DNA of 64,000 nucleotides from an uncultured Acidiphilium sp. (lineage in GTDB: Bacteria > Bacillota > Clostridia > Christensenellales > Borkfalkiaceae): contig CABUWK010000003.1 of NCBI GenBank assembly GCA_902495325.1, forward strand, positions 23,645 through 87,644. The letters are read 5' to 3'. Made by a program: the position numbers and the translations under genes. Position 1 is the first letter of the stretch, and each line of letters opens with the position of its first letter. The notes beneath the pieces are model-generated. The model worked only from the letters and a program-made list of their open reading frames with translations, ran no database searches and was not told the DNA's origin. Positions 322-26,256 of the stretch are shown piece by piece.

Positions 322-3300
322 TTATGCGTTGTGCGGGTCGGAATCGAGGATCTTAAGATCGGCAAGATAAGTCACGATTCCCGCGCTCCCTTCCAGATAA
401 CTGCTCCAGAAGCTTTCCGGAGCAACCGTTGTGTAATCGATAACGATCTCGTACCAGACACCCTGCGCCATAGACGTAACGGCGTTGCCCTGCATGTCAT
501 AGATCTTCGCGTGGGAAACCGCAGTTACGAAATTGGTGTTTCCGCCTAGCGTAAACACGCCGTTATATTCGTTGCGGATTTTCAAAGAAACGAATTTTCC
601 TTTGAAATCGCCGGAAGAAACGCCAAGCCTTCCCGTCCACCAATTGCCGTTGTTGGTGTATTTATAGGCATTCGCAACTCCTTCGTACGTTCCCGCACTC
701 TCCAGAGTCGACTCTTCTCCTACGGAAAGATACTTCTCAATGTTTCCGTTGTCTTCCGCCACGTCCGCAAACGGATTTTCATCCGAAACCTGCAAATCGG
801 CGATATACATATTGCCACCGTCGAGCGTGATGTACCACAGCCAGTCTGTACTTCCCGTCAGATCGATCAGAACGGTATACCATACGTCTTTGGAAAGGGT
901 CTTTACAAGCTTTCTGTCTGCGGTGTAATATCTGATGTTTCCGTCGAAAGTCCAGCCGTTTTTGTCGTAAGAATTCACGTAGTTCACGGCGTAATAGATC
1001 GCCTGTTCGTTGTTGAGCCTTATTTTAAGCGTGATCGCCTTGCCCGTAACCGCAGCGTTGCCCATACCGAAGTCGAGTCTGTCGGCATACCAGCCCGTAC
1101 TCGTATAAAGATACGCCCCTTCGACGCCGTCGATCGCTTCGTTCTGTTTTGCAAGCGTTCCCGCCGTCTGAATCATCTTTGCGATATTGGAAGTATCCTC
1201 TTCCGGGATCTCGTAAGGACATTCGTCGAGCAAGCGAAGATCGGCTATATACATACTGCCGTCTTTATCGAGAGTGATATAGTTGATCCAGTCGGCAGAA
1301 CCGGAAAGATCGACGATAAGAATATACCAGGCGTTATCCTCCGTCTTTTTGACGTAGTTTCCTTCAAGGTCGAAATAATGGATCTGCTTATCGAAAGTCC
1401 AACCGTTTTTATCGTAAGAATTTACGTAATTTATGCTGAAATACGGTCTCGCCGCCCCGTTGAATCTCACCTTTAAAGACACGACTTTACCGACGTAAGT
1501 CTGCGCCTGAAATTCAAGCCTGCCGGTATAGAAATTTTCGGTCTTGTTCTCGTAGAGATAAGCGTCGGATACGTTATCGACTTCTTCGGTCTGTTTTTTA
1601 AGAGAGGCGGAGGTAGTCAGTTTTGTCGCGATCTCGGAATTGTCGCCTACGATCTCCGGATCTTCCTTCAGATAACTCATGTTTCTGATATATCCGACCG
1701 CGGGCGCATATTTGGAGCCGTTAAGACCGATATAAAACAGATCCCATTCGGGAAGATTCGCATCGTCGTAAGGCACATAAACAAGGATCGTATACCACGA
1801 ACCGTTTCCGAGAGGACTTAAATTACCGTTGGCATTGTATATCCTCACGGTTTCGTGTTCGGTTACGGACGACGTGATATTCATTTCGAGTTTCACGTCC
1901 GCTCCTCCGTTCACGCCCTTGATCCAGTTACAGATCCCGAGCCCGTTACCGCTTGCGATATAAAGATCGAACTTAATATAATGATACCCGTTGCCGAAGA
2001 AACTTTGCGGCTCGAACGTTTTGTTGTGGATATCGTTAAAAGTTATGGTTCCGCTGGAAGAAGTCGTCTGACTTCTGATCTTATAGGCATCTTTGAAACT
2101 GCCGTTTACCACTTTTTTCACCGTTACGGCTTTGGAACCGACGGAGATATTATTAAGGAAATCGTCTTTCTCGTCGGTAACTTCGGGATCGTCGACTTCG
2201 CCGATCGGGTGTCTCTCGTCGTAAGTACCGTCCGGAAGAAGATTTGCGGTGGTATGGAAAGCAAAGTTTTTAAGATATGCTTTCTGGTTGTTTGCCTGAT
2301 CAACGTTGATCGAGAAGCCCATCAGAGACCAGCCGTCGGTATACGTAGAGATATCGTAAACGACGGTATACCATTTTCCCGTAACGAGTTCGGTTCCGTC
2401 CGCCAGGCGTTTTCCGTCTTCGCCGTAAATATGGAGAAGATCGTCGTCGCCCGTATATTTTCCCATTGCCTCGGGACCGAATCTGTTTCCCGAAGCAGAC
2501 AGGTCATACATGCAATATGCGCCCGAACTGCTCTGGAAAGAGGACGGGATGTAAACCACGAAAGCCGCAGTGTCTGCAAAATAGATATCGTAGGAAAAAG
2601 TTTTGTATCCGTTTGCGAGGATACTTTCGAGCGAAGAAGATTCGGTAACCGCATTGTTCCAGTAGTTTCCCTTTTTGCCCAGCTTGTATTCGTAGCAATC
2701 CTTGAATTCGCCGTCGAAAACCTTGGTAAACGTGGAATCTTCCACACCTTTGAGCATTGCGCCCGCCTTATACTCAACCGTGTCGTCGTGAACGGTTACG
2801 GCGATGCTGCCCGTCACGTCGGTTCCGTGATTGTCGTAAACAAGCCTTACCTCGGCTTTTCCTACCGCTTTCGCCCGGATCGTCAACCCGTCGAGCTCGA
2901 TATAATCCGCCCCCGATTCGATTTCTGCGGTTATCGTTGCATTTTCCACCTTTTCGGCATTCACGAAAACTTCCGCTTCGATCTCCGCAGACGTAGGATC
3001 GACATCTCCCGCGATCGTCGAAAGCGAAATTTTATCGGATGCGGGTTTCACCGTGTCAGATTCTTCGACGGTAACGGTAACTGCCTTTGCGGCAGTGGTA
3101 AATCCTTTATAAGTCGCTCTTACCTGCATTCTCGTAACGCCTGCCGTTACGCCGCGGAGCGTTCCGTCTTCTTCCACGGCAATGATCTCGCTCAGCGCAT
3201 TATAGGTAAAGGTTACGCCGCTTTCCACGTTTTTGTCTTTATAAGAAAGGGAAAGAGATTCTTTCACGTCAACGGTTTTCCCTTTATAAACGGAAACGGG

Positions 3301-3657
3301 CGTTACCGACAGGACCGGTCTGTCTCCCGAATCGGTTACGGTCACCGGGTAAGTAACGGTAAAGCCGCCCGCTGTTGCGGTCACGGTAACCGCCCCCTCT
3401 TTTCCTTCCGCGGAAACCACGCCGTCTTTCACCGTTGCCACGGTTTCGTCCGAACTTTTCCATTCGATAAGCCCGGACAATCCCTCGGCAGGAGCAAGGC
3501 TCTTATTCTCGAACAAATCGAGTTCGGTTGCGGGCATTTCTTTCGTTGCGTCTCCCGAAGACGAACTTCCGTTATCGTCGGTGTTACCGCACGCAAAGAA
3601 GCACCCCGTTGATACGGCAAAGCATAAAAGCAATGCCAACAGTCTGATCTTTTTCAT
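322..3657 (-). CDS. Large surface lipoprotein: three Big_2-like Ig domains followed by five tandem beta-sandwich (CBM-like) modules
   Basis: 1111-aa ORF with lipobox MKKIRLLALLLCFAVSTGCFFAC. Big_2-type repeats are present (e.g. IEWKSSDETVATVKDGVVSAEGKEGAVTVTA). Of the five ~140-190-aa modules, the last three are clearly homologous (NYVNSYDKNGWTFD, WY..IDL.GS.DW..YITLD, MYIADL). Confidence 0.85.
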   Translation of the reverse strand: MKKIRLLALLLCFAVSTGCFFACGNTDDNGSSSSGDATKEMPATELDLFENKSLAPAEGLSGLIEWKSSDETVATVKDGVVSAEGKEGAVTVTATAGGFTVTYPVTVTDSGDRPVLSVTPVSVYKGKTVDVKESLSLSYKDKNVESGVTFTYNALSEIIAVEEDGTLRGVTAGVTRMQVRATYKGFTTAAKAVTVTVEESDTVKPASDKISLSTIAGDVDPTSAEIEAEVFVNAEKVENATITAEIESGADYIELDGLTIRAKAVGKAEVRLVYDNHGTDVTGSIAVTVHDDTVEYKAGAMLKGVEDSTFTKVFDGEFKDCYEYKLGKKGNYWNNAVTESSSLESILANGYKTFSYDIYFADTAAFVVYIPSSFQSSSGAYCMYDLSASGNRFGPEAMGKYTGDDDLLHIYGEDGKRLADGTELVTGKWYTVVYDISTYTDGWSLMGFSINVDQANNQKAYLKNFAFHTTANLLPDGTYDERHPIGEVDDPEVTDEKDDFLNNISVGSKAVTVKKVVNGSFKDAYKIRSQTTSSSGTITFNDIHNKTFEPQSFFGNGYHYIKFDLYIASGNGLGICNWIKGVNGGADVKLEMNITSSVTEHETVRIYNANGNLSPLGNGSWYTILVYVPYDDANLPEWDLFYIGLNGSKYAPAVGYIRNMSYLKEDPEIVGDNSEIATKLTTSASLKKQTEEVDNVSDAYLYENKTENFYTGRLEFQAQTYVGKVVSLKVRFNGAARPYFSINYVNSYDKNGWTFDKQIHYFDLEGNYVKKTEDNAWYILIVDLSGSADWINYITLDKDGSMYIADLRLLDECPYEIPEEDTSNIAKMIQTAGTLAKQNEAIDGVEGAYLYTSTGWYADRLDFGMGNAAVTGKAITLKIRLNNEQAIYYAVNYVNSYDKNGWTFDGNIRYYTADRKLVKTLSKDVWYTVLIDLTGSTDWLWYITLDGGNMYIADLQVSDENPFADVAEDNGNIEKYLSVGEESTLESAGTYEGVANAYKYTNNGNWWTGRLGVSSGDFKGKFVSLKIRNEYNGVFTLGGNTNFVTAVSHAKIYDMQGNAVTSMAQGVWYEIVIDYTTVAPESFWSSYLEGSAGIVTYLADLKILDSDPHNA

Positions 3658-3768
3658 ATTTCCTCCTGTTTTTCAAGTGTTCTCCGATCAAACGCCTTCC
3701 CGGTGTTTCCGGCAAAAAAAGCCTTTTTGCCATTGCAGCGGGATTTTGTCCAAGCGGATTTCCCTGAT

Positions 3769-5625
3769 TTATTCCGGTTTTACCGCGATCGCGCCGAAAT
3801 ATCGCAGACCTGCGGTTATATTGCCCGCCGCGTCGATCAGGTTTCTGCCCTTTATCGCAAGCGCGCCGACGTAACATTTTTCTTCTGCGGGAGCGAAACG
3901 GGTAATTTTTTCATAGCCGTCGAAATCACCGCTCAGATCGAATGCGGGGTCGAAACCGAACGCTTTGGAATCCGCCGCAATCTCGGCGAAATTTGCGCTC
4001 ATGTTATAATAAACGTTAGACAGAAACAGATAATCTTCCCCCATATCGGTAAAACGGATATATCCGTTATTCTTCACCGGGCTGTAAAAAATGTTGTTTT
4101 TAAAGTAAAACCCGTTCGGCGAAGACGAATCGTATTCGGAATCCCATTTCGTAACGGTCATAAGCGGCTGCGAGGAGTTATCCGTAAAAATAACCGTGTT
4201 GTTTTCGAAATATACGTTATCGCAGGGCCCCGCGACATGCATAAGCGCGGGATAATTCCCCTCGGTTTTTCCGTTACGGGCGAACACGTTGTTTCTTATG
4301 TATGCGCCGTTCCAGTCGGCTTTGCCTTTCATCGTTACGATTTTGCCGTTTTCGTCCTTGCGCACGTTTCCCTCTTCGTCGCAAAGGGCAACCTGACCGC
4401 CCGTATTGCAAAGCAGGATCCCGCCGCCGTCGTTATCGTGCGAATAGTTATAACGGAAAGTCACGTTGCGGCAACCTATATCGATATCGAACCCCTCTCC
4501 GTCCGCAGCGCCGTTCGCCAGGCGACAGAACGCCGCTTCGTTGAACTGCATTACGATATCCGAAGAAGAGATCGGCCACATTCCCACGTTAGCCGTTCCG
4601 CTTCTGCCGAGATAGTTTGCGTTATAGGAAACGTTTCTTTCGAAATATCCTCCCTTAACGCCTATCATAACGAGACCGTCTCCGCCCGTGATGTCGGTAC
4701 GATTTCCCACGTAATTTACGTTTTTCGAAGGATAATAACCGTGCTCGTCGTCACAATAAGGATTGACGCCCCAGGCAACGCCGATTTTTTTGACCCAGTT
4801 GCTCGTCATGAACACGCCGCTTCTCGAAACTTTCTCGATGCGGTTGTTCTCGACCCACACATTTTCGAGCCAACACGGCACCGTTCCCGAATCGGTATTG
4901 AAAACGATCCCTCCTCGCTCGTACACAAACGCTTCGTCCACTTCTTTCACACCGTTTTTGCCGAGTTCTCCGAGCTTTGCAAGATAGCTTTCTTCCCCGT
5001 CCGGTTTCACCCAGTTCCAGTTCACGTTGTGTATATAACAACCGGAAATAACGATATTTTCGTTATGCCCTTTCGTAAACACGTATATTCCGCGCAATCC
5101 CTTCGGATTTGTGATCTCGAGATTTTTCACTCTCACGTTCCCGCCGCTCACGTACACGGCATTTTCGTTGCCGTTTCCGTCGATCACGGCTTGCTTTTCG
5201 CCGTAAGACGACAGCATAAGCGGCGTTTTTTCGGAAGAGGAATAACCGCTTACTTCGACGGTACCTTTGAAAGTTCCTTTCAGAAAGATCTGCAAAGCGC
5301 CTTTTTTCGACTGTGTTCCGATCACTCTGTTGAGTTCTTCGACGCTCTTTTTAGGCGAAGTTTCCGAAAACCCGTCGTTTTCGTCGTTTCCGCCGTCCGC
5401 GTCGAAATACACGTCCGTATAAGCCCCCGTATTTACCTCGTCATACTTCGGCGCAAACGTAAGGTTCGCGTAACCGCTCAGATCTTCTTCCGCAGGCGGT
5501 TTTCCGCCGCCGGAAGAAGACTCCGCATCGGTCGGGCTTCCGTGATCTCCCCCCGGCGAACAGGAACTCAGCGCGCCCGCGAACACAAGGGCGAACGCCG
5601 CCAGAAATGCGATAAATCTTTTCAT
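3769..5625 (-). CDS. Secreted lipoprotein with right-handed parallel beta-helix (pectate-lyase fold), glycanase-like; paralog 1 of 3
   Basis: 618-aa ORF with lipobox MKRFIAFLAAFALVFAGALSSC. It shares these motifs with 10814..12409 and 12425..14323: NPKGLRGI, WGVNPY, GGDGLV, ANVGMWPI, DGEGFDIDI, YNYSHDNDGGGILLCN. Confidence 0.85.
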   Translation of the reverse strand: MKRFIAFLAAFALVFAGALSSCSPGGDHGSPTDAESSSGGGKPPAEEDLSGYANLTFAPKYDEVNTGAYTDVYFDADGGNDENDGFSETSPKKSVEELNRVIGTQSKKGALQIFLKGTFKGTVEVSGYSSSEKTPLMLSSYGEKQAVIDGNGNENAVYVSGGNVRVKNLEITNPKGLRGIYVFTKGHNENIVISGCYIHNVNWNWVKPDGEESYLAKLGELGKNGVKEVDEAFVYERGGIVFNTDSGTVPCWLENVWVENNRIEKVSRSGVFMTSNWVKKIGVAWGVNPYCDDEHGYYPSKNVNYVGNRTDITGGDGLVMIGVKGGYFERNVSYNANYLGRSGTANVGMWPISSSDIVMQFNEAAFCRLANGAADGEGFDIDIGCRNVTFRYNYSHDNDGGGILLCNTGGQVALCDEEGNVRKDENGKIVTMKGKADWNGAYIRNNVFARNGKTEGNYPALMHVAGPCDNVYFENNTVIFTDNSSQPLMTVTKWDSEYDSSSPNGFYFKNNIFYSPVKNNGYIRFTDMGEDYLFLSNVYYNMSANFAEIAADSKAFGFDPAFDLSGDFDGYEKITRFAPAEEKCYVGALAIKGRNLIDAAGNITAGLRYFGAIAVKPE

Positions 5626-5644
5626 CGTTTCCTCCTCGGTCTGC

Positions 5645-7927
5645 TTACTCCTCTGCCGCGCGGTAGCCTTCCGGCAAAGTCACTTTTCTCGTTCCGTCGC
5701 TGTTTTCCATCGTGACGAAGCCCCCCTTTACGGGAACGCTTATCCGATAGCGTACGGCTACCGTTTCCTTTCGCAAACGAACCACCTTTTCGGTTTCGTT
5801 CACTCCCACAAACCCGCTCACGACGAGAACGATCATATTCGCGGCATAAGAGCCGAAACCGTGATTAAGGCTGCACCGGATACGGTCGTGTTCCCACAGC
5901 GTACCCGTAACCGAAGCCATTTTATAGTAAGATCCCTTTGCGGATTCCAGGAACTTTTCGCCAAGCCCCTGTCTTGCAAGATAATCCGATCTCAGCATGT
6001 TGCCGATAAAGGCGTTGGATTTCGCAACGTTGGGATAAACTTTCTCCTCGTCGCGCGAAGGACCGAACTTTTCAACAAGCGTCCGATAGAGCCGGGGATA
6101 ACGATTTTTATCGGCGGTGCCGAAATAAAAAGCGTAATACTGGCAGGTTTCGGAGATATTTCCGGACAGCACGAGCTTTCCGTCTTTCCGGATCATATTG
6201 TCTTCGAAAAACTCGCCGTTATAAGACAGTTCTCTTATTTTTTCGCGCAGTTGCGAGGCTTTTTTCACGCTGTCGCGATCGCCGTAAAGCTTACCGAAAC
6301 TTTCGAGCGCGGCGGCATAAAGCATGTTCGACGGAAAGTTTACTCCCTTTACGTATTCGGCGTCCCCTGCCTTGGACCACTCGACAAACACCCAGTTGGA
6401 AAGATCCTCCAGCAGACCGAATTCGTTTTCGAATTGCCTGAAATACCGGACGACCTCTCTCGCCTTCTGCTCGCTTATCCCGATCAGCGAAACATCGTCG
6501 GTACGGATAAAACAATCGGCAAGTTCGAGCAGATAAAAAAGCATCCAGTTGGGGATAAACTCCACGTTTCCGAAATCGGCGGGATAGCACATCGCGAGAA
6601 TTCCCTTGCCGAGTCCGAGATCTTCGGGCTGAAAAGCATAATTTTCCAGAAAGTTCCGCTCTACCGTATTACCGCCCGTAAAGAGTTTTTCCGCCCGCGC
6701 CGAAAAATAGGAATCGCAAAGCCAGCCCGCACGCTCTCTCGAAGGGCAATCGGTCAGAACGTCGACGGCGTTCTGAGCCAGCGTATTTCTCGCCGCCTCG
6801 ACGATCGCGTTCAGCTTTTCGTCGTCGCAACGGAAAACCAGTCTCTTCGTTTCCGGATTTTCGTATCTTACAAGCCCTTCTTCCACGGCGGAAACACTAC
6901 CGGAAACCACAAGGATCTTCACGTATCTCGCAGTGTAAGGCTCGAAGGAAATGTGTCTGAACTCCCCTTTTTTTACTTCGTAAGAAATGACGTTTAATGT
7001 GTCGTTACGCCAGAAATCGACGGCTATAGGTTGATCTTCCGTTATTTCTTCCCGGTTGTCGATCTCTTCGAACACAACGTAAACCACGGAATCTTCTTCT
7101 GCCCTGAAACTTGAGGACAAAAACCCCGTGATCGAAACGGGATACCGGAATACCGCATATTCGCCGGCATGCAGTCTGCCGTCGAAAGCGCCGCATTTCT
7201 CTTTTTTATAGCCGTACCCGTAAACGTCGTCAAACGGGGCGATTTCCAGCTCCTCGCGCCGGAAAATTCCGATCGAATCGAGCGTAAGATATCTCACGTC
7301 GCCGAACTTATCTTCACTCGCTTTGAAAAACCTTCCTTTTTCGACAAAGCGATAGGTCTCGGCTTTAAAATCGAGATAAGCTACGTTTCTCGGCAGATAT
7401 TTCTTACAGGCAAACGCGCGCACCTTCGTTCCGGCGAATTTCGCGCCGTTTATGATCTCCTGCGGCGGAAGATCGAACCGGTAACTCTCGGTGAAACTAC
7501 GCTGAAAAGAGAATCTTGCAACTTTTCTGTATCTCTCCCGGAACACGCGGCAGTCTGTTTTTTCGTCTGTTGCGAAAATAATTTTTCCGTCTGCCTCGAC
7601 CTCGGCTTGCAGAAACGACGGCTGATCGAGCGAATAAAAACTTTTGCAGTTATATCCGGCTACTTCTATAAAAAGTCTGTTGCCGCCCTTTTCGCCCTGC
7701 AGTTTTATCTCGTCTACGCGATAGACCCCGTGAGCGGCGCGCGCCGGACCGTAAGCGACGAGTTTTCCGTTAAGAAAAGCCCTGTAAAAACAACTCGCGG
7801 CAGCCCTCAGCGTAAATTCACCGCAATCGCCGAACTCCCACGCGAAAACGCACGTGAGATTCATTGTTTTTTCTTCTCCGTCCGCCCAGACGGGAACGGC
7901 TTTCTGAAACGGTTCGTAATCAAACAT
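5645..7927 (-). CDS. GH78-like six-hairpin glycosidase (alpha-L-rhamnosidase family), cytoplasmic
   Basis: 760-aa ORF with no signal peptide. TDCPSRERAGWLCDSYF resembles the GH78 DCP.R(D)ERLGWTGD motif, and GTLWEHD...SLNHGFGSY is GH78-like at the C-terminus. It is a paralog of 26257..28401. Confidence 0.75.
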   Translation of the reverse strand: MFDYEPFQKAVPVWADGEEKTMNLTCVFAWEFGDCGEFTLRAAASCFYRAFLNGKLVAYGPARAAHGVYRVDEIKLQGEKGGNRLFIEVAGYNCKSFYSLDQPSFLQAEVEADGKIIFATDEKTDCRVFRERYRKVARFSFQRSFTESYRFDLPPQEIINGAKFAGTKVRAFACKKYLPRNVAYLDFKAETYRFVEKGRFFKASEDKFGDVRYLTLDSIGIFRREELEIAPFDDVYGYGYKKEKCGAFDGRLHAGEYAVFRYPVSITGFLSSSFRAEEDSVVYVVFEEIDNREEITEDQPIAVDFWRNDTLNVISYEVKKGEFRHISFEPYTARYVKILVVSGSVSAVEEGLVRYENPETKRLVFRCDDEKLNAIVEAARNTLAQNAVDVLTDCPSRERAGWLCDSYFSARAEKLFTGGNTVERNFLENYAFQPEDLGLGKGILAMCYPADFGNVEFIPNWMLFYLLELADCFIRTDDVSLIGISEQKAREVVRYFRQFENEFGLLEDLSNWVFVEWSKAGDAEYVKGVNFPSNMLYAAALESFGKLYGDRDSVKKASQLREKIRELSYNGEFFEDNMIRKDGKLVLSGNISETCQYYAFYFGTADKNRYPRLYRTLVEKFGPSRDEEKVYPNVAKSNAFIGNMLRSDYLARQGLGEKFLESAKGSYYKMASVTGTLWEHDRIRCSLNHGFGSYAANMIVLVVSGFVGVNETEKVVRLRKETVAVRYRISVPVKGGFVTMENSDGTRKVTLPEGYRAAEE

Positions 7928-7931
7928 AAAT

Positions 7932-12409: not shown

Positions 12410-12424
12410 TCGGGGAATCTCCTT

Positions 12425-14323: not shown

Positions 14324-14339
14324 CTTTTTCTCCGATATT

Positions 14340-14801: not shown

Positions 14802-14829
14802 GGTAAACTCCCGTAAATACCGAAAGGTT

Positions 14830-16524
14830 TTAACCTCTCATCTGCTTCATTATGTTATATTGCTGCGTTAAGAAATCAAGATAATCCGCGTCGTCTTCGA
14901 GATAGTTTCTTCTGTAGAACTCCGCAAGCGACAGATTCGGATTTTCGCTGCTCGCGTTGGACGGATTGGTATTGCCCGACCACGCAGACGCCGCAACGCC
15001 GTTCCAGTAAGTATTGAGCGATGCGGAATGAAGCTGGCTCATGCCCGCGTTTCTCGGAAGAATGTAATCGATGATATCGTTATCTACGTAATATTCTTTT
15101 TTCTGAGAATTTGCGATCCAAGCGCGTTCCTCGGCGGTGTAACCGCTGTACAACAGGTTGGACATATTCTGGTTTTCGACAAGGCTGAAGATACCGGAAT
15201 ACGGCGCTTTGGTAAGATAATTCTCTTTGCCTTCGGGATAAGAGTAAGTACCGTCGCCGTTGTTGACCCAGTGAGTGCCTTCCACGCCGTAAGCGCAGAG
15301 ATTATAGTTCGCTTCATCCGAGTACATCCAGTTAAGATATTTTACGATGTCGGCGGCGTTGGACGAAGAAGACATCACGATCGCCGCTTTATACCCGGTG
15401 GAAAGACGCATGAACCCTTTCTTGTCGGGAGAACTTTCTCTCGCGAGAGGTCCTAACACGGTAAATTCCGCTTCCGGGTTCTGAGCTTTTGTCTTTCTTG
15501 CCACCTTGATGAGATGCGAAACGGTCGGATCCGTCATGAACACACCCGTAAGCCCCGCGATAAACTGACCTTCCGACGCTTCGAGCGATTGCGTATTGGC
15601 GTCGCTCGGCAGAATCTTGGAATCGTGTACCCATCTGTATTCCGTCTGTAAAAGGTCTTTGAATCCTTCCTGCGCAAAACCGGGAGCGATTATCGTTTCG
15701 CCTTTTTCGTTCGTTGTCTCGCCGTAGAAGAAATAGCCCGCGTTGGAGAAGGCACCCGTAAACACTTTTTCGATATCCCAGATCGCACCGCTGATCGAAT
15801 ACGAAGAATCGTTATCGTGCCCCGTAACGTTTTTTGACTTCATCTTTTTGCACATATCCTCGAACTGCTCGACGGTGGTTAAAAGCGTAAGTCCTTTTTC
15901 CGCAGCTTCGTCGGCGTCGTCGGTGTAACCGACGGCTCTCATGTAGTCCTTTCTGACGAGAATTCCGTGTTTGTACGGATTGACGTAAGAAGGGATCCCG
16001 ACAAGTTCGTCGTTGAAAGTCGTCATCGTGTTAAGATCGGTTTTTTCGGAAATATTGTATCCGTACTGATCGACGAGTCTCGCGAGGTTGTAATAGATGC
16101 TCTGCCCGATCGCGTAATCGTCGATTCCCGAATCGAATCTCGTGTGCGATATCACCACGTCTACCTGTTCGTGCGCGACCAGGCTGTTCGCGAGAACGCT
16201 TGACATATTGGTGCCGAGATACGAAACGCTGAAATCGAGCGAAATGCCCGTATCGGCATAATAAGCGTCTTCGACCGCTTTTTTAACCGCTTCTTCTTCG
16301 GATCCTTTCACCACGCTGTATTCGGAAGAACCGCCGCAGTAAATAACGATCTTTTTCCCCGCGGGGCGTTTGGAAGGATCGTATTTCGTACCGCTTTCGG
16401 ACGAAGAATCCGCCGAAGACTGCTGATTGTCCGTGCTGTCCTTTTTCCCTCCGCCGCAGGCAGCGAAAGAAGCCGTGATCGCAAGCGCAACGATAAGACT
16501 GAGTGCTTTTTTGAAGATTTTCAT
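14830..16524 (-). CDS. ABC transporter extracellular solute-binding lipoprotein (large LplA-like sugar/oligosaccharide SBP)
   Basis: 564-aa ORF with lipobox MKIFKKALSLIVALAITASFAACGG and a Ser/Asp-rich linker. Its size and genomic context are typical of LplA-type SBPs. Its start overlaps the stop of the upstream gene (ATGA at 16521-16524). Confidence 0.85.
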   Translation of the reverse strand: MKIFKKALSLIVALAITASFAACGGGKKDSTDNQQSSADSSSESGTKYDPSKRPAGKKIVIYCGGSSEYSVVKGSEEEAVKKAVEDAYYADTGISLDFSVSYLGTNMSSVLANSLVAHEQVDVVISHTRFDSGIDDYAIGQSIYYNLARLVDQYGYNISEKTDLNTMTTFNDELVGIPSYVNPYKHGILVRKDYMRAVGYTDDADEAAEKGLTLLTTVEQFEDMCKKMKSKNVTGHDNDSSYSISGAIWDIEKVFTGAFSNAGYFFYGETTNEKGETIIAPGFAQEGFKDLLQTEYRWVHDSKILPSDANTQSLEASEGQFIAGLTGVFMTDPTVSHLIKVARKTKAQNPEAEFTVLGPLARESSPDKKGFMRLSTGYKAAIVMSSSSNAADIVKYLNWMYSDEANYNLCAYGVEGTHWVNNGDGTYSYPEGKENYLTKAPYSGIFSLVENQNMSNLLYSGYTAEERAWIANSQKKEYYVDNDIIDYILPRNAGMSQLHSASLNTYWNGVAASAWSGNTNPSNASSENPNLSLAEFYRRNYLEDDADYLDFLTQQYNIMKQMRG

Positions 16525-18362
16525 ATTTTCGCCTCTTTTATATTATTTTTTTTATTTCCGATAAATAAAACCGCCGCAAGTGCCGGAAATACCGGCGGAA
16601 CGACGCCGACCGACGATCTGCAGCCTCCCGGGGAAGCCGATCCGGAAGATCTGTCTTCGCTTGCCGTACCGGCGGGATCTCCTTCGCCCTTCACGGAGAT
16701 TGCGGCTTTTACGGTCCGCCGCAGTTCCTTCGGGGAGTTCTCGTCCTTTACGGTAAGCACGGCGTCGATCCCGTTTTCCGAACTCTCCCAGACAAACTGA
16801 ACCGCTTTTACTTCGATCGTTTCTCCGCCGAAAGTAACCGCTTTTATCGTAAACTCCGCATTTCCGAGATCCTCTTCTCGCCCGATCTCCAGAGACGGTT
16901 CCGGGATCGTTCTGATAAGATTTCCGAAATCGTCCGCATTGTTGTTGGTGATCCCGCTTATACCGATTGCCGCACAGAACGCGTCGTCGTAAGTCCATTG
17001 CCAGAGACCGTATCCTCTGTCCTTCAGATTGGAATTCGCAAATTTCGCATAGTTCAGCTGCGAAGAACAATCGAACGACATATTCCACGCGGTCGCCTTT
17101 TTCACATATCCGTCGAAGTTATCCGCGGTAACCGTTGCAAGCGTCGCGACGGGAAGTTCCGGGAAAACGTCGTGCATTTTAGCGATCTGCCCGTCTTCGC
17201 CGTCATAAAAACTGATGGCAAGCGTCTGCTTTTCGGCTTTATGCTTTTTGATTTCGGCGGCGATCAGAGCGCATGTCAGCGGATTTGTATCCTTTATCTC
17301 AATGACCGCAATCAGATCTTTGCCTTTGCAGTATTCCAGAACGTCGCCGAGAAAAGGGATCGCCGATTGTTTCCCCGTGACTTTTCCGTCGATATTTTTT
17401 ATCACCGAAAAAGCAGAAAGCTCGCTTTTTGTCATTTCGGAAATTTTCCCGCTGCCGTTCGTCGTTCTGTTTATCGTCGCATCGTGCATGACGGCAAGTT
17501 CGCCGTCTTTCGTCATCTGAACGTCGATTTCCACGTGGGTCGCGCCGCATTCGTAAGCGGCGGCGATCGCATCGATCGTATTTTCGTTCTCTGCCCGCGA
17601 AAGCCCCCTGTGCGCCACGTTATAATATGTTCTCGGAACGGAATACAACGGATATTTGCCGTAAACTTCCGTCAGCAACGAAAAGTTTTTGCATACGATC
17701 CCGTATGCGCCGGTCGTAACCGCCGCGGCAAAACCGTATTCGCTTTCGTTTCCGGCAACCGTCCATACGGTCGTAAACCGTGCCTGCAGATAGGCTGTCG
17801 TGTCCTCGTCCGATTGTTTTTCGGTTAAAACCACAATATTTCCGCCGCCTCTTCTCGCAGCCGCAAGATATTCGTAAGGCTCCGGAACATCTTTTTCCGT
17901 TGCATCGTAAATCGTTCTTACCCCGACGGTGTTTTCGCTCACGAACGCAAGCAGATCTTCGCTTTTGCTCATGACCGAAAGATCGGTCAGCTTTGCCCGG
18001 TTGATCTCGTTTGCGAGACCTTCGGCATCTCCCTTATCGTCCGTTTTCAGAATAAAAAGGATCCCGCTTTTATCGAGTGCGCTCTTTATGCTTCCGATGT
18101 CGCCGGCAACGTCGCCGCTTAAGTATTTTGCATTTCCTTCTCCGTATAAAAACACGGCGGAAGATGGTTTCACGGTCGCCTTTCTCATCTCGTCAAAGGA
18201 CTTTTCGTCTGCCGCTTCGGCAATCACCGACGGCGAAGCCATAAGTCCGGTATAGATTTCTTTTACGTCGGTATAGGCATCCGCTTTCATTCTTTCCGGA
18301 AAACCGGCAAACGCAAGAACGAATGCGGCGGCGGCAAGCAGAACGTTTTTCGGATGTTTCAT
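16521..18362 (-). CDS. Extracytoplasmic glycerophosphodiester phosphodiesterase (GDPD) domain protein with a C-terminal membrane anchor
   Basis: The ORF track extends to 18818, but that N-terminus overlaps the permease gene. The ATG at 18362 (MKHPKNVLLAAAAFVLAFAGF signal) overlaps the permease stop (ATGA 18359-18362). GDPD motifs: HRGLSRAENENT, ATHVEIDVQMTKDGELAVMHDATINRTTNGSG. The C-terminal TM is VVPPVFPALAAVLFIG. Confidence 0.85.
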   Translation of the reverse strand: MKHPKNVLLAAAAFVLAFAGFPERMKADAYTDVKEIYTGLMASPSVIAEAADEKSFDEMRKATVKPSSAVFLYGEGNAKYLSGDVAGDIGSIKSALDKSGILFILKTDDKGDAEGLANEINRAKLTDLSVMSKSEDLLAFVSENTVGVRTIYDATEKDVPEPYEYLAAARRGGGNIVVLTEKQSDEDTTAYLQARFTTVWTVAGNESEYGFAAAVTTGAYGIVCKNFSLLTEVYGKYPLYSVPRTYYNVAHRGLSRAENENTIDAIAAAYECGATHVEIDVQMTKDGELAVMHDATINRTTNGSGKISEMTKSELSAFSVIKNIDGKVTGKQSAIPFLGDVLEYCKGKDLIAVIEIKDTNPLTCALIAAEIKKHKAEKQTLAISFYDGEDGQIAKMHDVFPELPVATLATVTADNFDGYVKKATAWNMSFDCSSQLNYAKFANSNLKDRGYGLWQWTYDDAFCAAIGISGITNNNADDFGNLIRTIPEPSLEIGREEDLGNAEFTIKAVTFGGETIEVKAVQFVWESSENGIDAVLTVKDENSPKELRRTVKAAISVKGEGDPAGTASEDRSSGSASPGGCRSSVGVVPPVFPALAAVLFIGNKKNNIKEAKI

Positions 18363-19240
18363 CCCTTTACCGCTCCTATCGTGATTCCGTCTACGAAATA
18401 TTTCTGGATAACGGGGAAGATCGCAAGCAACGGAGCAATCGCTATCACGACCGCCGCGGATTTCGCCGAAAGCACGGGGGTAATGGCGGAAGACCCGTCC
18501 AGTCCGCCCGAAGTGCCGGAATTTTCGAGGATCTGTTTCAGCACAAACTGCAACGGACGAAGAGATTTGCTCCTTTCGCTCTGCCCTAAATATAACAGCG
18601 CGTCCATCCAGCTGTTCCACCTGTCCACGAACATAAAAAACGCAATGGTTAAAACCATGGGCACGGAAATAGGCAGGAATATTTTCACAAGCACCTGAAA
18701 ATCGTTTGCCCCGTCTATCATGGCGGCTTCTTCCAGCGCGGCGGGCAGCGAATAGAAGTAACTGCGCACCAGGATGATGTGGTAAAGGCTGAACATTCCC
18801 GGAATGATCAGCGCCCACATGGTATCGTAAAGACCGATATTTCTGATCACAAGATACAGAGGAATGGTCCCGCCCGCAAAAAACATGGTTATCATATAAA
18901 AGATATTCAGCCCTTTTATTCCGACGACGTATTTTTTACTGAGCGCGTAAGCCGTTATGAGCGATACCGTTACGGACAAAACCGTGCCGGACACCGAAAT
19001 GATCAGCGAATTCAGAATCGCGCGCAGAATGTTATATTCGTCCGCCGAAAATATGTACTTGTACCCCGCCGTGGAAAAAGCCGCGGGAAACAGTTTATAA
19101 CCGTTTACGCGGAGAGAGATCTCTTCGGTAAACGAACTGATGATCATCATCCAGAACGGCAGAATGAAGGTGATGCAAAGCAGAATGATGATCAGCGCGT
19201 TAAAAATATCGAAAACTCTGTCGCCTTTATACTTTTTCAT
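18359..19240 (-). CDS. Carbohydrate ABC transporter permease (LplC-like)
   Basis: The membrane ORF contains the EAA-type loop ALEEAAMIDGANDFQVLVKIFLP. I chose the start at 19240 (MKKYKGD) because GGGAGAG lies about 7 nt upstream. The ORF-track start at 19267 is also possible. Confidence 0.88.
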   Translation of the reverse strand: MKKYKGDRVFDIFNALIIILLCITFILPFWMMIISSFTEEISLRVNGYKLFPAAFSTAGYKYIFSADEYNILRAILNSLIISVSGTVLSVTVSLITAYALSKKYVVGIKGLNIFYMITMFFAGGTIPLYLVIRNIGLYDTMWALIIPGMFSLYHIILVRSYFYSLPAALEEAAMIDGANDFQVLVKIFLPISVPMVLTIAFFMFVDRWNSWMDALLYLGQSERSKSLRPLQFVLKQILENSGTSGGLDGSSAITPVLSAKSAAVVIAIAPLLAIFPVIQKYFVDGITIGAVKG

Positions 19241-20024
19241 TTTCATTCTCTCCCGTATTTTCAACAAGGTAATGATACGCGGTACCTATCAGCGCAACGT
19301 CGTTGAACTCGCGCGGATAAGCCGAAACGATCGAATGAATCCCGGAAATCAGATATTCGGCGGTAAGCATGTACCCCGACGGATTCATATGTCCGTTAAA
19401 ATAATTCTTCGTTTTGAATCCGGAATCGTAAACGGGCGCATATTCGTTAAGGTCGATCACGTAACAGTTATCGATCGCTTCGCTGAAGGCGTACATAAGC
19501 TGTGCGTGCCGTCTTTTAAGACCGGCGCGTTTTTCGTCGTCGCTCTCCTCTTTCGGCATCGTGACAAAGAAAAATTTCGCATGAGGTTCTATCTTTTTAT
19601 ACCTCGTTACCACATCGGAAAAATATCTGGCGAACGTGTCCGCGTCGCTGCCGATATCGCCCGCATCGCCGACTTCCTGTCCCATGTTCATAAGATCGTT
19701 GATTCCGAGCGCAACGATATATGCCTGGCACTTTTTCTCTTCGTCGAAACAGCCGTTCTGCTCTCCCCAGCCCTCGATAAACTGTTTTGCGGACATTCCC
19801 CCGCGGGAGAAATTATAAACCTTTGCCCCCGTAATTCTCGCAAGAAATTGCCCCCAGGAATATTCGTAAAGATCGAGATAGTGTCCTTCTCCGTTTCTGA
19901 CAATTTCTATTTCACCCGACGCGAGAGAATCTCCCACGCATGCGATTCTTCTGAATATCGCGCAGCTTCCTCCGCCGTAAGGCTTCCGGAAAAGCGGATC
20001 TTTGATACCGAGTTCCTTTTTCAT
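19227..20024 (-). CDS. SGNH/GDSL hydrolase (carbohydrate esterase-like)
   Basis: Block I is IACVGDSLASGE, block III is ALGINDL, and there is no signal peptide. The start at 20024 (MKKELGI, GGTGA RBS) avoids overlap with the upstream permease. The ORF-track start at 20072 is the alternative. Confidence 0.8.
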   Translation of the reverse strand: MKKELGIKDPLFRKPYGGGSCAIFRRIACVGDSLASGEIEIVRNGEGHYLDLYEYSWGQFLARITGAKVYNFSRGGMSAKQFIEGWGEQNGCFDEEKKCQAYIVALGINDLMNMGQEVGDAGDIGSDADTFARYFSDVVTRYKKIEPHAKFFFVTMPKEESDDEKRAGLKRRHAQLMYAFSEAIDNCYVIDLNEYAPVYDSGFKTKNYFNGHMNPSGYMLTAEYLISGIHSIVSAYPREFNDVALIGTAYHYLVENTGENENEKV

Positions 20025-20037: not shown

Positions 20038-21972
20038 TTATAAAACGCCTTCGTTATCGGTTTTCTTTGCAATGTTGTTCGTTACGATAACGAGCACAAG
20101 ACCTATCATCCCCTGTATGAGCCCGAACGCGGTAGCCATCGCATAACCGGAACCGCCCATAACCGCCGAGTAAGCCATCGATCCGACGATGTAAGTCGAA
20201 TTGCTCAGATACTGGCTTCCGTTTGTCAGTGCGAGCACCTGTTCGTAGTTATCTCTTATCAGGTTGCCCGCATCCATGATAAGCTGAAGCATGATCACGT
20301 TTGCGATCCCCGGAATAGTGACGGTTATAATCTTTCTGAACCTTCCGCCGCCGTCGATACTGCAGGCGTCGTACAGTTCGGAGTTGATGCAACCGAGTGC
20401 GGACATGTAGATTATGGTTCCCCATCCGAGCGACTTCCACATCGACGAAAGCGCCAGAAATATCCACCAGACGGTCGTGTTTTCGCTGTACCAGTCTTTC
20501 ACGTAAGCCTGACCTTTAAAAAGAGAAATGATCCTGTTGAGAAGACCGCCGTCCATCGCGAAAATCGAAAGCGCCATACCGCCGACCGCGATCCAGGAAA
20601 TAAAGTTCGGCAGATAGGATATCGTTCTTATCACCGACTTCGCCTTGCCGGAATGCACTTCGTTGATCATCAGCGCGAAGATAAGAATCGCGGGGAAGTT
20701 TGTGGCGACCCTGATCAGCGAAATGTAGATCGTATTTCTGAAGACCAGGAATACGTTTTCGTCCGCACCCGTCACGATGTGCCTGAAATATTTTAACCCG
20801 ACCCATTCGCTGCCGGCAAAACCGTCGGTCAGCGTGAAGTCCTTGAAGGCGATAAACACGCCGAACATAGGTACATAACAGAACGTAACCACGAGGATCG
20901 CGCTCGGAATCAGCATAAAATATATCATTTTGTGCCGTTTCATTTTCGCGAACTTCTCACCGCGGAAAAAATTCTTTACCCTGCCCGTCGCCAGGGCAAA
21001 AACAAACAGAGCCGCAAGCGCGACGCCAAGCCCGGCAAGACATCCGATCAGAATGTAGTTCGGAAAGTTTTTATAAGCGAAGTAGCCGAGCATATAATCG
21101 ATTTCCGCTCTCTCGATCACTTCCTTCTTCAAGGGTTTTCCGTCTTCGTAAACGATCTTGCCGCTTTCGTCCGTAACGTAATCGTAACCGACGACGTTTG
21201 CGGTCGTTCTGAACGAAGTTATTTCTATTTTGTTTTTCCCGACGACCTTCATCCCGTGCGACGACGTATAGGTTATCCTGCCCGGAACTTCGAGAACGAT
21301 CTTATCCAGAAAACCGACCCCCGCAAGACGGAACAATCCGAAATATTCTTTTCCGGATGCGGCGGAAGCCGCTTCCGCAAATTCTTCCACGCCGACCGTT
21401 TTCCCGGAAGACACTTCCACGGGAAGTATTTTCACATCGGGATTTTTTATCATTTTATACTGTCCTATCGGCAGCGAACCTTTCACTTTCATGACCGACT
21501 TTACGAGATAACCGTCGGCAATATCGGCAAGTTCGGTATAAGTCGAGCTCGTCGCGCTTGCGTAAGCGGAGAATTTATCCCACGCGAACCAGTTCCATGC
21601 GCTCGTAAGTCTCGCGCTCAGTCTTCTCGTTCCGATACCGACTTTATAGGCGGTTCCCTCTTCTCTGATATATTTAAGGTCAAGGGTATCGCTGTCGGCA
21701 GAGTTGTTGATCAGTATTTTAACGCTTTCCTTTACGAAAGTCGAGAAATCGTCGAAATCGCCGAGATATCCGGGCAATCTGTCCTTCTGGATCACCATAT
21801 CGATTTCCGCCCTGCCCGACTTGTCGAGTTTCGCTTTGGCGTAAGACCCGGTTTCCGTATCGCCGGCGGCTTTCGCCGTTGCCGGTACGGCAAGTGCCAT
21901 CGAAAAACACAAAACGATAAGCACGGCAAGCACCGCCGCGATATATCCCGTCAAATTTCTCGTCTTTCTCAT
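20038..21972 (-). CDS. ABC transporter permease (LplB-like) fused to an N-terminal TM plus an extracytoplasmic domain of about 290 aa
   Basis: The start at 21972 (MRKTRNLTGYIAAVLAVLIVLCF) is preceded by AAAGGTGA. Residues ~1-350 are TM, soluble domain, TM. From MIYFMLIPSAILVVTFCYVPMFGVFIAFKDF onward it is a canonical 6-TM permease (EAA loop ELYDACSIDGGGRFRKIITVTIP). Confidence 0.85.
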   Translation of the reverse strand: MRKTRNLTGYIAAVLAVLIVLCFSMALAVPATAKAAGDTETGSYAKAKLDKSGRAEIDMVIQKDRLPGYLGDFDDFSTFVKESVKILINNSADSDTLDLKYIREEGTAYKVGIGTRRLSARLTSAWNWFAWDKFSAYASATSSTYTELADIADGYLVKSVMKVKGSLPIGQYKMIKNPDVKILPVEVSSGKTVGVEEFAEAASAASGKEYFGLFRLAGVGFLDKIVLEVPGRITYTSSHGMKVVGKNKIEITSFRTTANVVGYDYVTDESGKIVYEDGKPLKKEVIERAEIDYMLGYFAYKNFPNYILIGCLAGLGVALAALFVFALATGRVKNFFRGEKFAKMKRHKMIYFMLIPSAILVVTFCYVPMFGVFIAFKDFTLTDGFAGSEWVGLKYFRHIVTGADENVFLVFRNTIYISLIRVATNFPAILIFALMINEVHSGKAKSVIRTISYLPNFISWIAVGGMALSIFAMDGGLLNRIISLFKGQAYVKDWYSENTTVWWIFLALSSMWKSLGWGTIIYMSALGCINSELYDACSIDGGGRFRKIITVTIPGIANVIMLQLIMDAGNLIRDNYEQVLALTNGSQYLSNSTYIVGSMAYSAVMGGSGYAMATAFGLIQGMIGLVLVIVTNNIAKKTDNEGVL

Positions 21973-22096: not shown

Positions 22097-22125
22097 ATTA
22101 TAACGCGCACATGGTGAATTGTCTT
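22097..22125 (-). promoter_or_regulatory. Candidate promoter of the long glycan operon (weak -35, probably activator-dependent)
   Basis: The minus strand reads AAGACA-17 nt-TATAAT (-10 at 22097-22102, -35 at 22120-22125), about 125 nt upstream of the ATG at 21972. Confidence 0.3.
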
Positions 22126-22289
22126 TCTTTTTTTTATCAACAAACTGTGAATTATTGACTATTTCCCGACTGTTTCATGAAAATAAACGGCAGACTTATC
22201 CCGTTTTTACGGCTGCAAATTGGCATTTTTTGATTGCAACGCTTATTATATAAGTTAAAATTTAACAATCCCCGTTTTTTGATTTTCTC

Positions 22290-22318
22290 TTGACAAAGGG
22301 GCATTATAGTATTATAAT
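22290..22318 (+). promoter_or_regulatory. Sigma-A type promoter of the AraC regulator gene
   Basis: Perfect consensus TTGACA (22290-22295), 17-nt spacer, TATAAT (22313-22318), 31 nt before the ATG at 22350. Confidence 0.7.
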
Positions 22319-22349
22319 CGTTATATGATAAGTTTTCGGAGAATTTTGA

Positions 22350-26255: not shown

Positions 26256-26256
26256 G

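Follow-up and report, generated by a model that had tools for sequence, protein, structure and literature searches.

Clusters of carbohydrate-active enzyme (CAZyme) genes that combine an AraC-type regulator with an ABC importer are already known in Gram-positive bacteria, and so is glycoside hydrolase (GH) family GH136. The latter is taken as a marker for the use of the type-1 chains of human milk and mucin, and metagenome surveys count GH136 accordingly (PMC13388695). Described GH136 loci include those of Bifidobacterium longum, with LnbX and LnbY, and of Roseburia and Eubacterium, with RhLnb136, RiLea/b136 and ErLnb136 (PMC7335108). In ErLnb136, D568 is the acid/base and D575 the nucleophile, while W548 stacks on the -2 galactose of lacto-N-biose (PMC7335108). 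The stretch of 64,000 nucleotides that was analysed here (the window; contig CABUWK010000003.1) contains a related locus with a different composition. Its 12-gene set is confirmed as a genuine glycan-utilization operon. It probably represents an AraC-activated polycistronic CAZyme cluster, a Gram-positive "polysaccharide utilization locus", of a Christensenellales-like gut Clostridium, built on three duplicates of the GH136 family and directed at a heteroglycan of beta-galactose and N-acetylhexosamine (HexNAc).

The twelve genes (G1 to G12) are co-directional on the minus strand and span positions 322-21972 in the map of open reading frames (ORFs), with the first ATG at 21972 and the last stop at 322. 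They are listed below in operon order, together with the divergent regulator gene and the flanking elements. Locations at the surface, in the membrane or in the cytoplasm are predicted from signal peptides and transmembrane (TM) segments. Related loci are designated L001 to L004, which stem from one scan of species-representative genomes, and L014 to L023, which are further loci.

22350-23246, plus strand: AraC-family regulator, 298 residues (HTH_18 at 1.3e-19, HTH_AraC; AraC_binding just under the cutoff)
22097-22125, minus strand: candidate operon promoter, AAGACA-17-TATAAT (promoter scan; -35 and -10 kept in L001, L002 and L003)
20038-21972, minus strand: G1, N-terminal TM helix and extracytoplasmic domain of about 300 residues fused to an LplB/UgpA-type ABC permease, 644 residues (BPD_transp_1 at residues 431-637)
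19227-20024, minus strand: G2, cytoplasmic SGNH/GDSL esterase, 265 residues (Lipase_GDSL_2 at 2.2e-11)
18359-19246, minus strand: G3, second ABC permease, LplC/MalG type (BPD_transp_1; sub-threshold GlcU, UgpE and MalG matches)
16521-18362, minus strand: G4, extracytoplasmic three-domain GDPD phosphodiesterase with C-terminal TM anchor, 613 residues (GDPD at 3.5e-27, residues 251-471)
14830-16524, minus strand: G5, large LplA-type solute-binding lipoprotein, 564 residues (SBP_bac_1 at 28.7 bits, cutoff 26; signal peptide with Cys)
14340-14801, minus strand: G6, multi-pass membrane protein, 153 residues (hydrophobic segments)
12425-14323, minus strand: G7, surface lipoprotein, GH136-like beta-helix glycosidase, paralog a, 632 residues (LnbX match, DGEGFDID, WPV, lipoprotein signal)
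10814-12409, minus strand: G8, cytoplasmic GH136-like beta-helix glycosidase, paralog b, 531 residues (matches to GH136 entries of the PDB; no signal peptide)
7932-10784, minus strand: G9, cytoplasmic LacZ-type GH2 beta-galactosidase, 950 residues (five Pfam domains)
5645-7927, minus strand: G10, cytoplasmic divergent GH78-fold "alpha-L-rhamnosidase-related" enzyme, 760 residues (Bac_rhamnosid6H at 2.8e-19)
3769-5625, minus strand: G11, surface lipoprotein, GH136-like beta-helix glycosidase, paralog c, 618 residues (Beta_helix at 3.5e-07, LnbX, DGEGFDID, WPI, lipoprotein signal)
322-3657, minus strand: G12, surface lipoprotein, 1111 residues, Ig-like N-terminal region and five tandem modules of about 150 residues (self-scan repeats)
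286-308, minus strand: GC-rich hairpin, probable operon end (perfect 10-bp stem with 7 GC pairs; -20.2 kcal/mol, z -3.6)

The catalytic core of the locus is formed by G7, G8 and G11, which are 38-41% identical to each other. A phmmer search with G8 against all PDB sequences returned only five GH136 entries (LnbX, BsaX, ErLnb136 and TnX), with a best E of 6.3e-22, and a profile of the three paralogs and their homologues matched ErLnb136 (6kqs) with an E of 1.8e-39. Among the NCBIfam models only LnbX matches G7, G8 and G11, at a level that is sub-threshold for an equivalog. PDB searches of the beta-helix proteins with E up to 1 returned no structure of the polysaccharide lyase families PL1, PL3 and PL9 or of GH28. 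The catalytic D-x6-D pair is invariant in our alignment of the family (A1) and lies within DGEGFDID, which in G8 aligns with DSMAWDAD of 6kqs and DGQAWDAD of LnbX; the equivalents of D568 and D575 in G8 are D322 and D329, the numbering of the ErLnb136 chain being derived from the alignment of G8 with the PDB sequences. In the same alignment, W548 is the second Trp of a WPW motif common to LnbX, BsaX, ErLnb136 and TnX. In G8 and G11 this position is occupied by Ile (WPI), in G7 by Val (WPV). A Trp there is found in none of the 49 closest homologues in which the motif could be located (out of 56), and in none of 38 such top clusters at 50% identity (out of 45); WPW persists in members at a greater distance, ErLnb136-like sequences among them. 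Homology and the catalytic residues thus make GH136 the best assignment for the three proteins, and the loss of W548 and the failure to detect an LnbY-type partner, together with the retained Asp pair, point to a distinct subclade whose -2 subsite differs.

The GH136-like superfamily is a large one: it comprises 4215 clusters at 50% identity and does not seem to be tied to host glycans, since homologues are also found in soil actinomycetes (e.g., Nonomuraea and Streptomyces). All close homologues are unnamed metagenome proteins, and some distant ones show a weak match to Pel9A-like_beta_helix. A separate observation concerns a 54%-identical homologue of G7 in L017 (an ERZ15610166 contig, 4854-16375), which is located in a different cluster, with three metallophosphoesterases and GH116, GH43, GH130-like, GH63-like and GH140-like genes; from this context, use of the G7-type enzyme extends beyond the conserved module.

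With respect to the operon structure, the same 12 genes with the same boundaries were called independently on identical metagenome contigs from four ENA samples; ERZ28565153 and ERZ13617508 are examples of samples with the identical locus. This bears out the sequence-only reading of the DNA that preceded this work, which had proposed a 12-gene single-strand operon beside a divergent AraC gene, with gaps of at most 111 nucleotides, two ATGA overlaps and no convincing internal terminator. The recomputed gaps agree: in operon order they amount to 13, -20, -4, -4, 28, 16, 15, 29, 4, 19 and 111 nucleotides, the -20 between G2 and G3 being an overlap that becomes -14 if G3 starts at 19240, and the ATGA overlaps lie at 18359-18362 (G3/G4) and 16521-16524 (G4/G5). 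For G1 there is an alternative in-frame ATG at 22044; alignment with orthologous loci favours 21972. Terminator-like sites within the operon occur at chance level (21 vs 18.6 and 15 vs 16.3 in shuffled sequences), and the terminator scan of the operon found no such hairpin in any minus-strand intergenic gap. The families in the earlier inventory were recovered with Pfam and NCBIfam, but the gene order had to be revised (permease G1, SGNH esterase G2, permease G3, GDPD G4 and solute-binding protein G5, then G6 to G12), and G1 is more than a plain permease. For the partial ORF at 1-272, previously called a second SGNH gene, the family search gave no hit, and this assignment could not be confirmed.

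The hairpin at 286-308 directly follows the G12 stop, and the next minus-strand ORF beyond it begins at 272. Its T-run is on the plus strand only, which makes its action as a terminator uncertain; no plus-strand gene reads into it. At the other end, the 377-nucleotide region between G1 and the AraC gene holds two promoter candidates in the promoter scan. The candidate for the AraC gene is a perfect TTGACA-17-TATAAT, and the other one lies on the operon strand. Just upstream of the latter, the block GTTAATTATTCACA..TTATTGCAAAAAAAA is kept alongside the -35 and -10 elements in L001, L002 and L003, and this conserved block is likely to be the site of AraC. For the spacer between G11 and G12 (3658-3768, 111 nucleotides), folding gives a single long stem-loop (-33.2 kcal/mol, z -2.9) whose end lies some 15 nucleotides ahead of the ribosome-binding site. 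Neither fold nor sequence is kept in L001-L003, L001 having a threefold tandem 20-mer instead, and because the fold is not conserved a functional RNA was rejected. This junction is unusually long in all related loci (100-230 nucleotides). No Rfam family was found in the window from 1 to 33500.

The same locus exists in four species-representative genomes, namely Clostridiales metagenome-assembled genome (MAG) UMGS1072, Clostridiales bacterium SUG310, an "Acidiphilium" MAG and a "Christensenella" MAG. The order from AraC to the big lipoprotein is identical in these four, with protein identities from about 89% (G3 in L001 and L003) to about 43% (GDPD in L004). Overall, six or more related uncultured Clostridia (L001-L004, L014 and L019) share this gene neighbourhood, and identity ranges in them from 89% down to 29%, the weakest being G6 in L014. 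All three GH136 paralog types are kept in L014 and four are found in L004; this retention suggests that the paralogs are old, non-redundant duplicates. A reduced module is present in RF39-like "Enteromonas" and other Bacilli. It consists of a GH78-like enzyme, GH35, AraC, a protein of about 310 residues corresponding to the N-domain of G1, two permeases, a solute-binding protein, a small membrane protein, one GH136-like enzyme, a surface protein of about 1180 residues and, often, GH123. Across the lineages, the constant partners are a beta-galactosidase (GH2 or GH35), the GH78-fold enzyme, the LplABC-type importer with two accessories and a giant repeat lipoprotein. GH123 is found in L014, L015 and L018 and GH95 near the module in L022, and close relatives all come from gut metagenomes or gut MAGs. 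As a side remark, L002 (CAZHGN010000015.1), which is titled "uncultured Acidiphilium sp.", has a Clostridia-type locus with 57-83% protein identity and is probably from a mislabelled or contaminated bin.

Two of the constant partners are the cytoplasmic glycosidases. In G9, the domains Glyco_hydro_2_N, Glyco_hydro_2, Glyco_hydro_2_C, LacZ_4 and Bgal_small_N all score above their cutoffs, and the protein matches the LacZ-type model NF052611 over its full length with 650 bits, below the equivalog cutoff of 999. G10 matches Bac_rhamnosid6H with 70 bits (cutoff 24.5) and RhaB (2okx) with an E of 2.3e-13, the motif DCPSxExxxWxxD being aligned. Its residues D393, E398 and D405 fall on DCPSYEQVFWVGD of 2okx and are invariant in 19 family members; the acidic active-site residues of RhaB we take to be D567, E572 and D579. 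A candidate for the general-base Glu, equivalent to E841 of RhaB, is the last residue of TGTLWE679, which is invariant in the family. The AlphaFold2 (AF2) model of G10 (predicted local distance difference test, pLDDT, 86.8; predicted TM-score, pTM, 0.90) displays an (alpha/alpha)6 catalytic domain with flanking beta-sandwich domains, and the loop carrying the acidic motif has a low pLDDT. In a Foldseek search with this model, ranks 1-11 are all GH78 (2okx: E 2.9e-34, TMq 0.78). The clade is very large and consists of unnamed or "rhamnosidase-related" proteins of gut Firmicutes. The combination of GH2 and "GH78-like" that had been read from the sequence is therefore upheld by the five-domain LacZ architecture and by the GH78 fold and motif, with the restriction that G10 is divergent in sequence (13-16% identity to solved GH78).

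The importer, too, is as first described. Pfam finds BPD_transp_1 twice and SBP_bac_1 once, all above their cutoffs, which corresponds to a CUT1/LplABC system of one solute-binding protein and two permeases, and detects no ABC_tran ATPase gene in 322-23246; the divergent AraC regulator has orthologues with 73-81% identity at the same position in L001-L003. G3 is 83-89% identical to its counterparts in L001, L002, L003 and L019. G1 has hydrophobic segments at residues 4-37 and from 303 onward. Searches of Pfam and the PDB with its N-domain (window 20968-21972) gave no match at E up to 10; the domain exists as a separate gene for about 310 residues just upstream of the permease gene in L015 (5078-6013), L018 (5119-6048) and L022 (15450-16400). 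It is fused to the first permease in Christensenellales-like loci and free-standing in RF39-like and other Bacilli loci. For G5, the PDB search gave no related solved structure. G6 has no family match in Pfam or the PDB (E up to 10). Homologues or size-matched genes follow the solute-binding protein gene in L001-L004, L014-L016, L019 and L022. As G6 always takes this place in lineages with the module, it may be an unrecognized transporter accessory.

G12 is the largest protein of the system. A jackhmmer self-scan delimits its repeats at about 296-470, about 500-681, 680-835, 834-979 and 987-1110, and the modules of about 150 residues have no family match. A lipoprotein of 1111 residues had been foreseen, described as "Big_2/CBM-like"; Big_2 is sub-threshold (E 0.015), and the "CBM-like" part turns out to be the five family-less modules. 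Orthologues in L001-L003 are 61-65% identical, and analogous proteins of 1068-1207 residues occur in L014, L015, L016 and L018. Comparison of G12, the solute-binding protein and the SGNH protein with solved structures gave nothing informative on the substrate. A glycan-binding function of G12 is presumed.

GDPD and SGNH behave differently from the rest of the operon. Both genes are present in the window and in L019; SGNH is present and GDPD absent in L001 and L003; GDPD is present and SGNH absent in L004; and both are absent in L002 and L014. Thus, they are accessory genes that come and go independently. Of the four closest species-level loci, three lack GDPD, as do L014, L015, L016, L018 and L022. 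Where it does occur with the module (window, L004 and L019), it takes the same slot between the permease and solute-binding protein genes. It diverges faster than its neighbours (53% vs 65-89% identity to L019), and only 16 proteins with the G4 architecture were found. The same architecture is paired with a GDSL esterase, without GH136, in two unrelated contexts (L020 and L021), and in L020 the pair is embedded in a glycan locus that also has AraC, an ABC importer and a Big_2 protein. L020 offered no usable substrate clue: its 640-residue protein is family-less, and the GH106 match of the 938-residue protein upstream is sub-threshold and too weak to be used.

Despite this patchy distribution, G4 appears to be catalytically intact. 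It matches PF03009 with 96.5 bits and carries a signal peptide in the hydrophobicity scan, and the motifs HRG, ExD, HD and ExK are invariant in alignment A3, as are H251, E278, D280, H293, E355 and K357, which presumably include the catalytic His pair and the metal-binding Glu/Asp/Glu typical of the GDPD family. The AF2 model (pLDDT 82) consists of an alpha/beta N-domain, a GDPD barrel and an Ig-like domain. Foldseek retrieves generic GDPDs (TMt 0.83 to 2pz0), and the neighbours include GlpQ and staphylococcal-phage GDPDs that degrade wall teichoic acid. Two further features of G4 may be mentioned: residues of about 45-235 form a confidently modelled alpha/beta domain that has no family match, and ahead of the C-terminal TM helix and its basic tail there is a nearly invariant Gly-Cys (580-581), an arrangement that recalls a C-terminal sorting signal. 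A role in trimming substituents of a glycan would fit this enzyme. A literature search on GDPD in gut glycan cross-feeding gave nothing relevant. As for the esterase G2, it has no hydrophobic segment.

Further along the window, a second AraC-controlled operon (25341-33135) has its minus-strand genes at 25341-32055:

32254-33135, plus strand: divergent AraC of the Nag operon (Pfam)
30652-32055, minus strand: ROK-like kinase (weak ROK match)
29865-30692, minus strand: NagB (TIGR00502, 277 bits, cutoff 237)
28703-29899, minus strand: NagA (TIGR00221, 357 bits, cutoff 226)
26257-28401, minus strand: GH78-like paralog, 714 residues, 45% identical to G10
25341-26429, minus strand: DUF4432 mutarotase-like protein (Pfam)

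This operon may constitute the downstream pathway of the 12-gene operon. In L023, the same pair of GH78-like paralog and DUF4432 has a FucI-like isomerase, an FGGY kinase and a class-II aldolase as neighbours. Together, the paralog in the Nag operon and the context in L023 link the GH78-fold family to N-acetylglucosamine (GlcNAc) and to a sugar with an isomerase/kinase/aldolase route, rhamnose or fucose. Between the two AraC-controlled sugar operons lie a gene of the carboxymuconolactone-decarboxylase family (CMD) and a divergent LysR regulator (23315-25224). Unrelated to the system, at 42979-45943 and 47558-50102, are two adjacent proteins of about 480-490 residues with N-terminal double zinc ribbons, and a GT87-like membrane glycosyltransferase beside a trehalase/GH37-like protein.

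On this basis, it is possible to propose how the cluster might work. The operon would be induced in an AraC-dependent way, and the repeat lipoprotein G12 would hold the polymer at the cell surface. The lipoproteins G7 and G11 could then clip short "biose"-type units as exo-type "biosidases", with one Asp as acid/base and the other as nucleophile, while the membrane-anchored GDPD G4, where present, might strip phosphodiester-linked substituents outside the cell. The products would be imported by G5 and the permeases G1 and G3, with participation of the N-domain of G1 and of G6, and with a shared ATPase encoded elsewhere. Finishing in the cytoplasm is expected to involve the GH136-like G8, the beta-galactosidase G9, G10 as a 6-deoxyhexosidase-like enzyme of the GH78 fold and the SGNH esterase G2, and the freed GlcNAc would enter the adjacent kinase/NagA/NagB operon. 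The substrate that we infer is a beta-Gal/HexNAc heteroglycan decorated with 6-deoxyhexose, O-acyl groups and, in a strain-dependent manner, phosphodiesters. Plain lacto-N-tetraose is an improbable candidate, since these proteins lack the Trp on which galactose stacks in known GH136 enzymes.

Several points weigh against an AraC-activated, GH136-based heteroglycan cluster as outlined above. As to the transcript, there is no U-run on the operon strand at the hairpin that follows G12, and an internal promoter or a processing site could be hidden in the 111-nucleotide spacer between G11 and G12. As to the enzymes, every characterized GH136 needs a helical LnbY/GH136_I subunit or domain (PMC7335108, PMC8106489). 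Such a partner was not detected when the N-domain of G1 and G6 were compared with the PDB and Pfam, in a sequence search only, with E up to 10; both lack similarity to 6kqs, G8 opens directly with the beta-helix (it aligns from residue 16), and G7 and G11 carry only low-complexity linkers. Since no LnbY-type partner was detected, G7, G8 and G11 might be inactive alone, or they might not be glycosidases of a known type. As to the substrate, the GH78-like G10 implies L-rhamnose or a similar sugar, and vertebrate glycans do not contain L-rhamnose. Family scans found none of the host-glycan enzymes GH20, GH29, GH33, GH95 and GH112 in the operon, and no lysozyme or teichoicase set accompanies it. 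Therefore, neither class of substrate fits cleanly. We consider host-type and microbial glycans about equally likely. Finally, the link with the Nag operon is one of adjacency and a shared paralog.

If the substrate is of host origin, the locus could be a canonical one for host or milk glycans, releasing lacto-N-biose, galacto-N-biose, N-acetyllactosamine or Lewis-type units from mucin O-glycans, milk oligosaccharides or glycosphingolipid glycans; the GH2 enzyme would remove beta-galactose, GlcNAc would pass to NagA and NagB, and the GH78-fold enzyme would act on a sugar other than rhamnose, for example by taking fucose off Fuc-GlcNAc. We regard this as possible, if somewhat doubtful. The only known GH136 activities are lacto-N-biosidase and the release of Lewis a/b units (PMC7335108). 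A beta-galactosidase partner is present in the Christensenellales-like and RF39-like loci alike, L014, L015 and L018 add GH123, a beta-GalNAc-ase family, and L022 has GH95 nearby. The adjoining GlcNAc catabolic operon, the gut origin of all close relatives and the L023 paralog beside fucose-type genes point in the same direction. However, the galactose-stacking Trp is lost throughout the subclade, the sequence search found no LnbY-type partner, the operon is without GH20, GH29, GH33 and GH112, and what the GDPD would do on vertebrate glycans is not apparent. In addition, G10 keeps the acidic motif and fold of GH78, and we know of no GH78 fucosidase. The opposite view, that the cells scavenge microbial glycans, goes back to the second idea of the sequence-only reading, a glycerophosphate-decorated, rhamnose-rich polysaccharide. 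It supposes a surface polysaccharide or exopolysaccharide with L-rhamnose, galactose, GlcNAc or GalNAc, O-acetyl and glycerophosphate (e.g., streptococcal, lactococcal or enterococcal rhamnose polysaccharides, or teichoic-acid-like polymers), from which GDPD and SGNH strip the decorations, the GH136-like enzymes having a specificity other than lacto-N-biose. It, too, can be held only tentatively. The GH78-fold enzyme with its intact acidic motif is a constant partner, and strain-variable SGNH and GDPD are what one would expect of decoration-specific accessories. GDPDs of the G4 architecture pair with GDSL esterases in L020 and L021, the G7 homologue of L017 stands among three metallophosphoesterase genes, and the size and soil members of the GH136-like superfamily argue against a tie to host glycans. 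The structural neighbours of the GDPD include GlpQ and phage enzymes acting on teichoic acid, but this likeness is generic to the family. Against this view, the window has no rhamnose catabolic genes and peptidoglycan or teichoic-acid backbone hydrolases are lacking, and to our knowledge there is no precedent for GH136 on such polymers. The weight originally placed on the GDPD also has to be reduced: it is extracytoplasmic and its catalytic motifs are intact, but most related loci lack it, so that the removal of phosphodiesters cannot be a central function. The microbial polysaccharide thus stays as one of two live substrate hypotheses, with the GDPD as an accessory.

The substrate first suggested for this DNA was rhamnogalacturonan-like pectin, with the beta-helix proteins as pectinases or rhamnogalacturonan lyases, GH78 taking rhamnose, GH2 acting on galactan side chains and SGNH as acetylesterase. 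Known rhamnogalacturonan-I systems do include a GH78-like enzyme, a beta-galactosidase and an SGNH esterase, the Beta_helix Pfam clan also holds pectinases, and there are the weak Pel9A-like matches of some distant homologues. Nevertheless, the idea rested on the beta-helix proteins being pectinases and falls with it. PDB searches at E up to 1 gave GH136 chains only and the GH136 catalytic motif is conserved, so that a pectinase assignment of G7, G8 and G11 was rejected. Pfam found no GH28, GH105, GH88, PL11, PL26, pectate lyase, uronate isomerase or KduI/KduD in the 12 proteins or the scanned neighbours, while relatives carry GH123 and GH35 and genes for GlcNAc-6-phosphate catabolism lie next door. 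A pectin locus is therefore very improbable. It could also be imagined that the operon is not one system, and that GDPD and SGNH are a cassette for scavenging phospholipids or glycerophosphodiesters that was inserted into a sugar operon. Their variable presence, the pair without GH136 in L020 and L021 and the resemblance of the GDPD domain to GDPDs for small diesters are in line with this. Such an insertion seems unlikely, as the GDPD gene overlaps both neighbours by ATGA, which indicates translational coupling, and keeps its slot in the window, L004 and L019; the protein is extracytoplasmic and multi-domain; and the L020 pair again belongs to a glycan locus.

One may speculate further that the Trp-less, apparently LnbY-independent subclade and its constant GH78-fold partner form a hitherto unrecognized two-enzyme module with specificities new to both families, although we would give this rather little credence. 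One possibility is that the surface "biosidases" free 6-deoxyhexose/HexNAc units from Gram-positive rhamnose-GlcNAc cell-wall polysaccharides or similar polymers, and that GDPD and SGNH strip glycerophosphate and acetyl groups. In a variant of this, the GH78-fold enzymes might not be rhamnosidases and might cleave Fuc- or Rha-GlcNAc disaccharides that feed the Nag operon.

The significance of the locus lies in a GH136-like subclade that, in uncultured Christensenellales-like and RF39-like gut bacteria, keeps the motif for catalysis without the galactose platform and for which no obligatory partner was detected; it is accompanied by a GH78-fold enzyme in place of the customary enzymes for human milk oligosaccharides. 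If its specificity differs, functional inference from GH136 in microbiome work needs subfamily resolution. The module would also open up the nutrition of lineages without cultured representatives, for which the N-domain of G1, G6 and the variable "decoration" genes for GDPD and SGNH are concrete and testable handles. Should the microbial-glycan view be true, uncultured gut Firmicutes would possess a dedicated system for using the surface glycopolymers of other bacteria as food.

A literature search of titles and abstracts gave no described example of a GH136 locus with GH78/GH2 or with GH123, and the close homologues are unnamed, in accordance with the initial impression that this gene combination is not a described locus. 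In the literature searched, the Trp-less subclade, for which no partner subunit was detected, appears undescribed, and so do the GH78-fold enzyme as its constant companion, the accessories of the transporter and the GDPD and SGNH genes that vary between strains. When compared with the known GH136 loci introduced above, the beta-helix domain and the Asp pair are shared, as are the existence of extracellular and intracellular GH136 variants, the coupling to an ABC importer and the occurrence in gut Firmicutes. In contrast, identity is only about 25-30%, W548 is replaced by Ile or Val, no LnbY/GH136_I is detected and each locus carries three paralogs. GH2 and GH78-like enzymes (with GDPD and SGNH) take the place of GH112, GH42, GH29 or GH95 as partners, and the importer is of the LplABC type, with an extracytoplasmic domain fused to it and a small membrane protein. 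G10 shares the (alpha/alpha)6 fold, the beta-sandwich N-domains and the acidic motif with the GH78 enzymes RhaB of Bacillus sp. GL1 (2okx) and SaRha78A (3w5n), but it is only 13-16% identical to solved GH78, belongs to a clade named only "rhamnosidase-related" by NCBI, and is associated with GH136-like enzymes, beta-galactosidases and GlcNAc catabolism rather than with rhamnose catabolism or pectin enzymes. G4 resembles the teichoic-acid GDPDs of the GlpQ type (5t91) and of phage tails (9f5m and 9eul) in its TIM-barrel, its His/Glu/Asp/Lys set and its extracytoplasmic location; it differs from them by its three domains, its C-terminal TM anchor and its place within a glycan-import operon. Finally, the AraC-controlled LplABC/CUT1 importers of Paenibacillus, Bacillus and Clostridia have the same solute-binding protein of about 560 residues, LplB/LplC permeases, ATPase encoded elsewhere and divergent AraC, to which the present system adds a domain of about 300 residues on the first permease (or, in the RF39-like loci, before it) and a membrane protein of about 150 residues encoded after the gene for the solute-binding protein.

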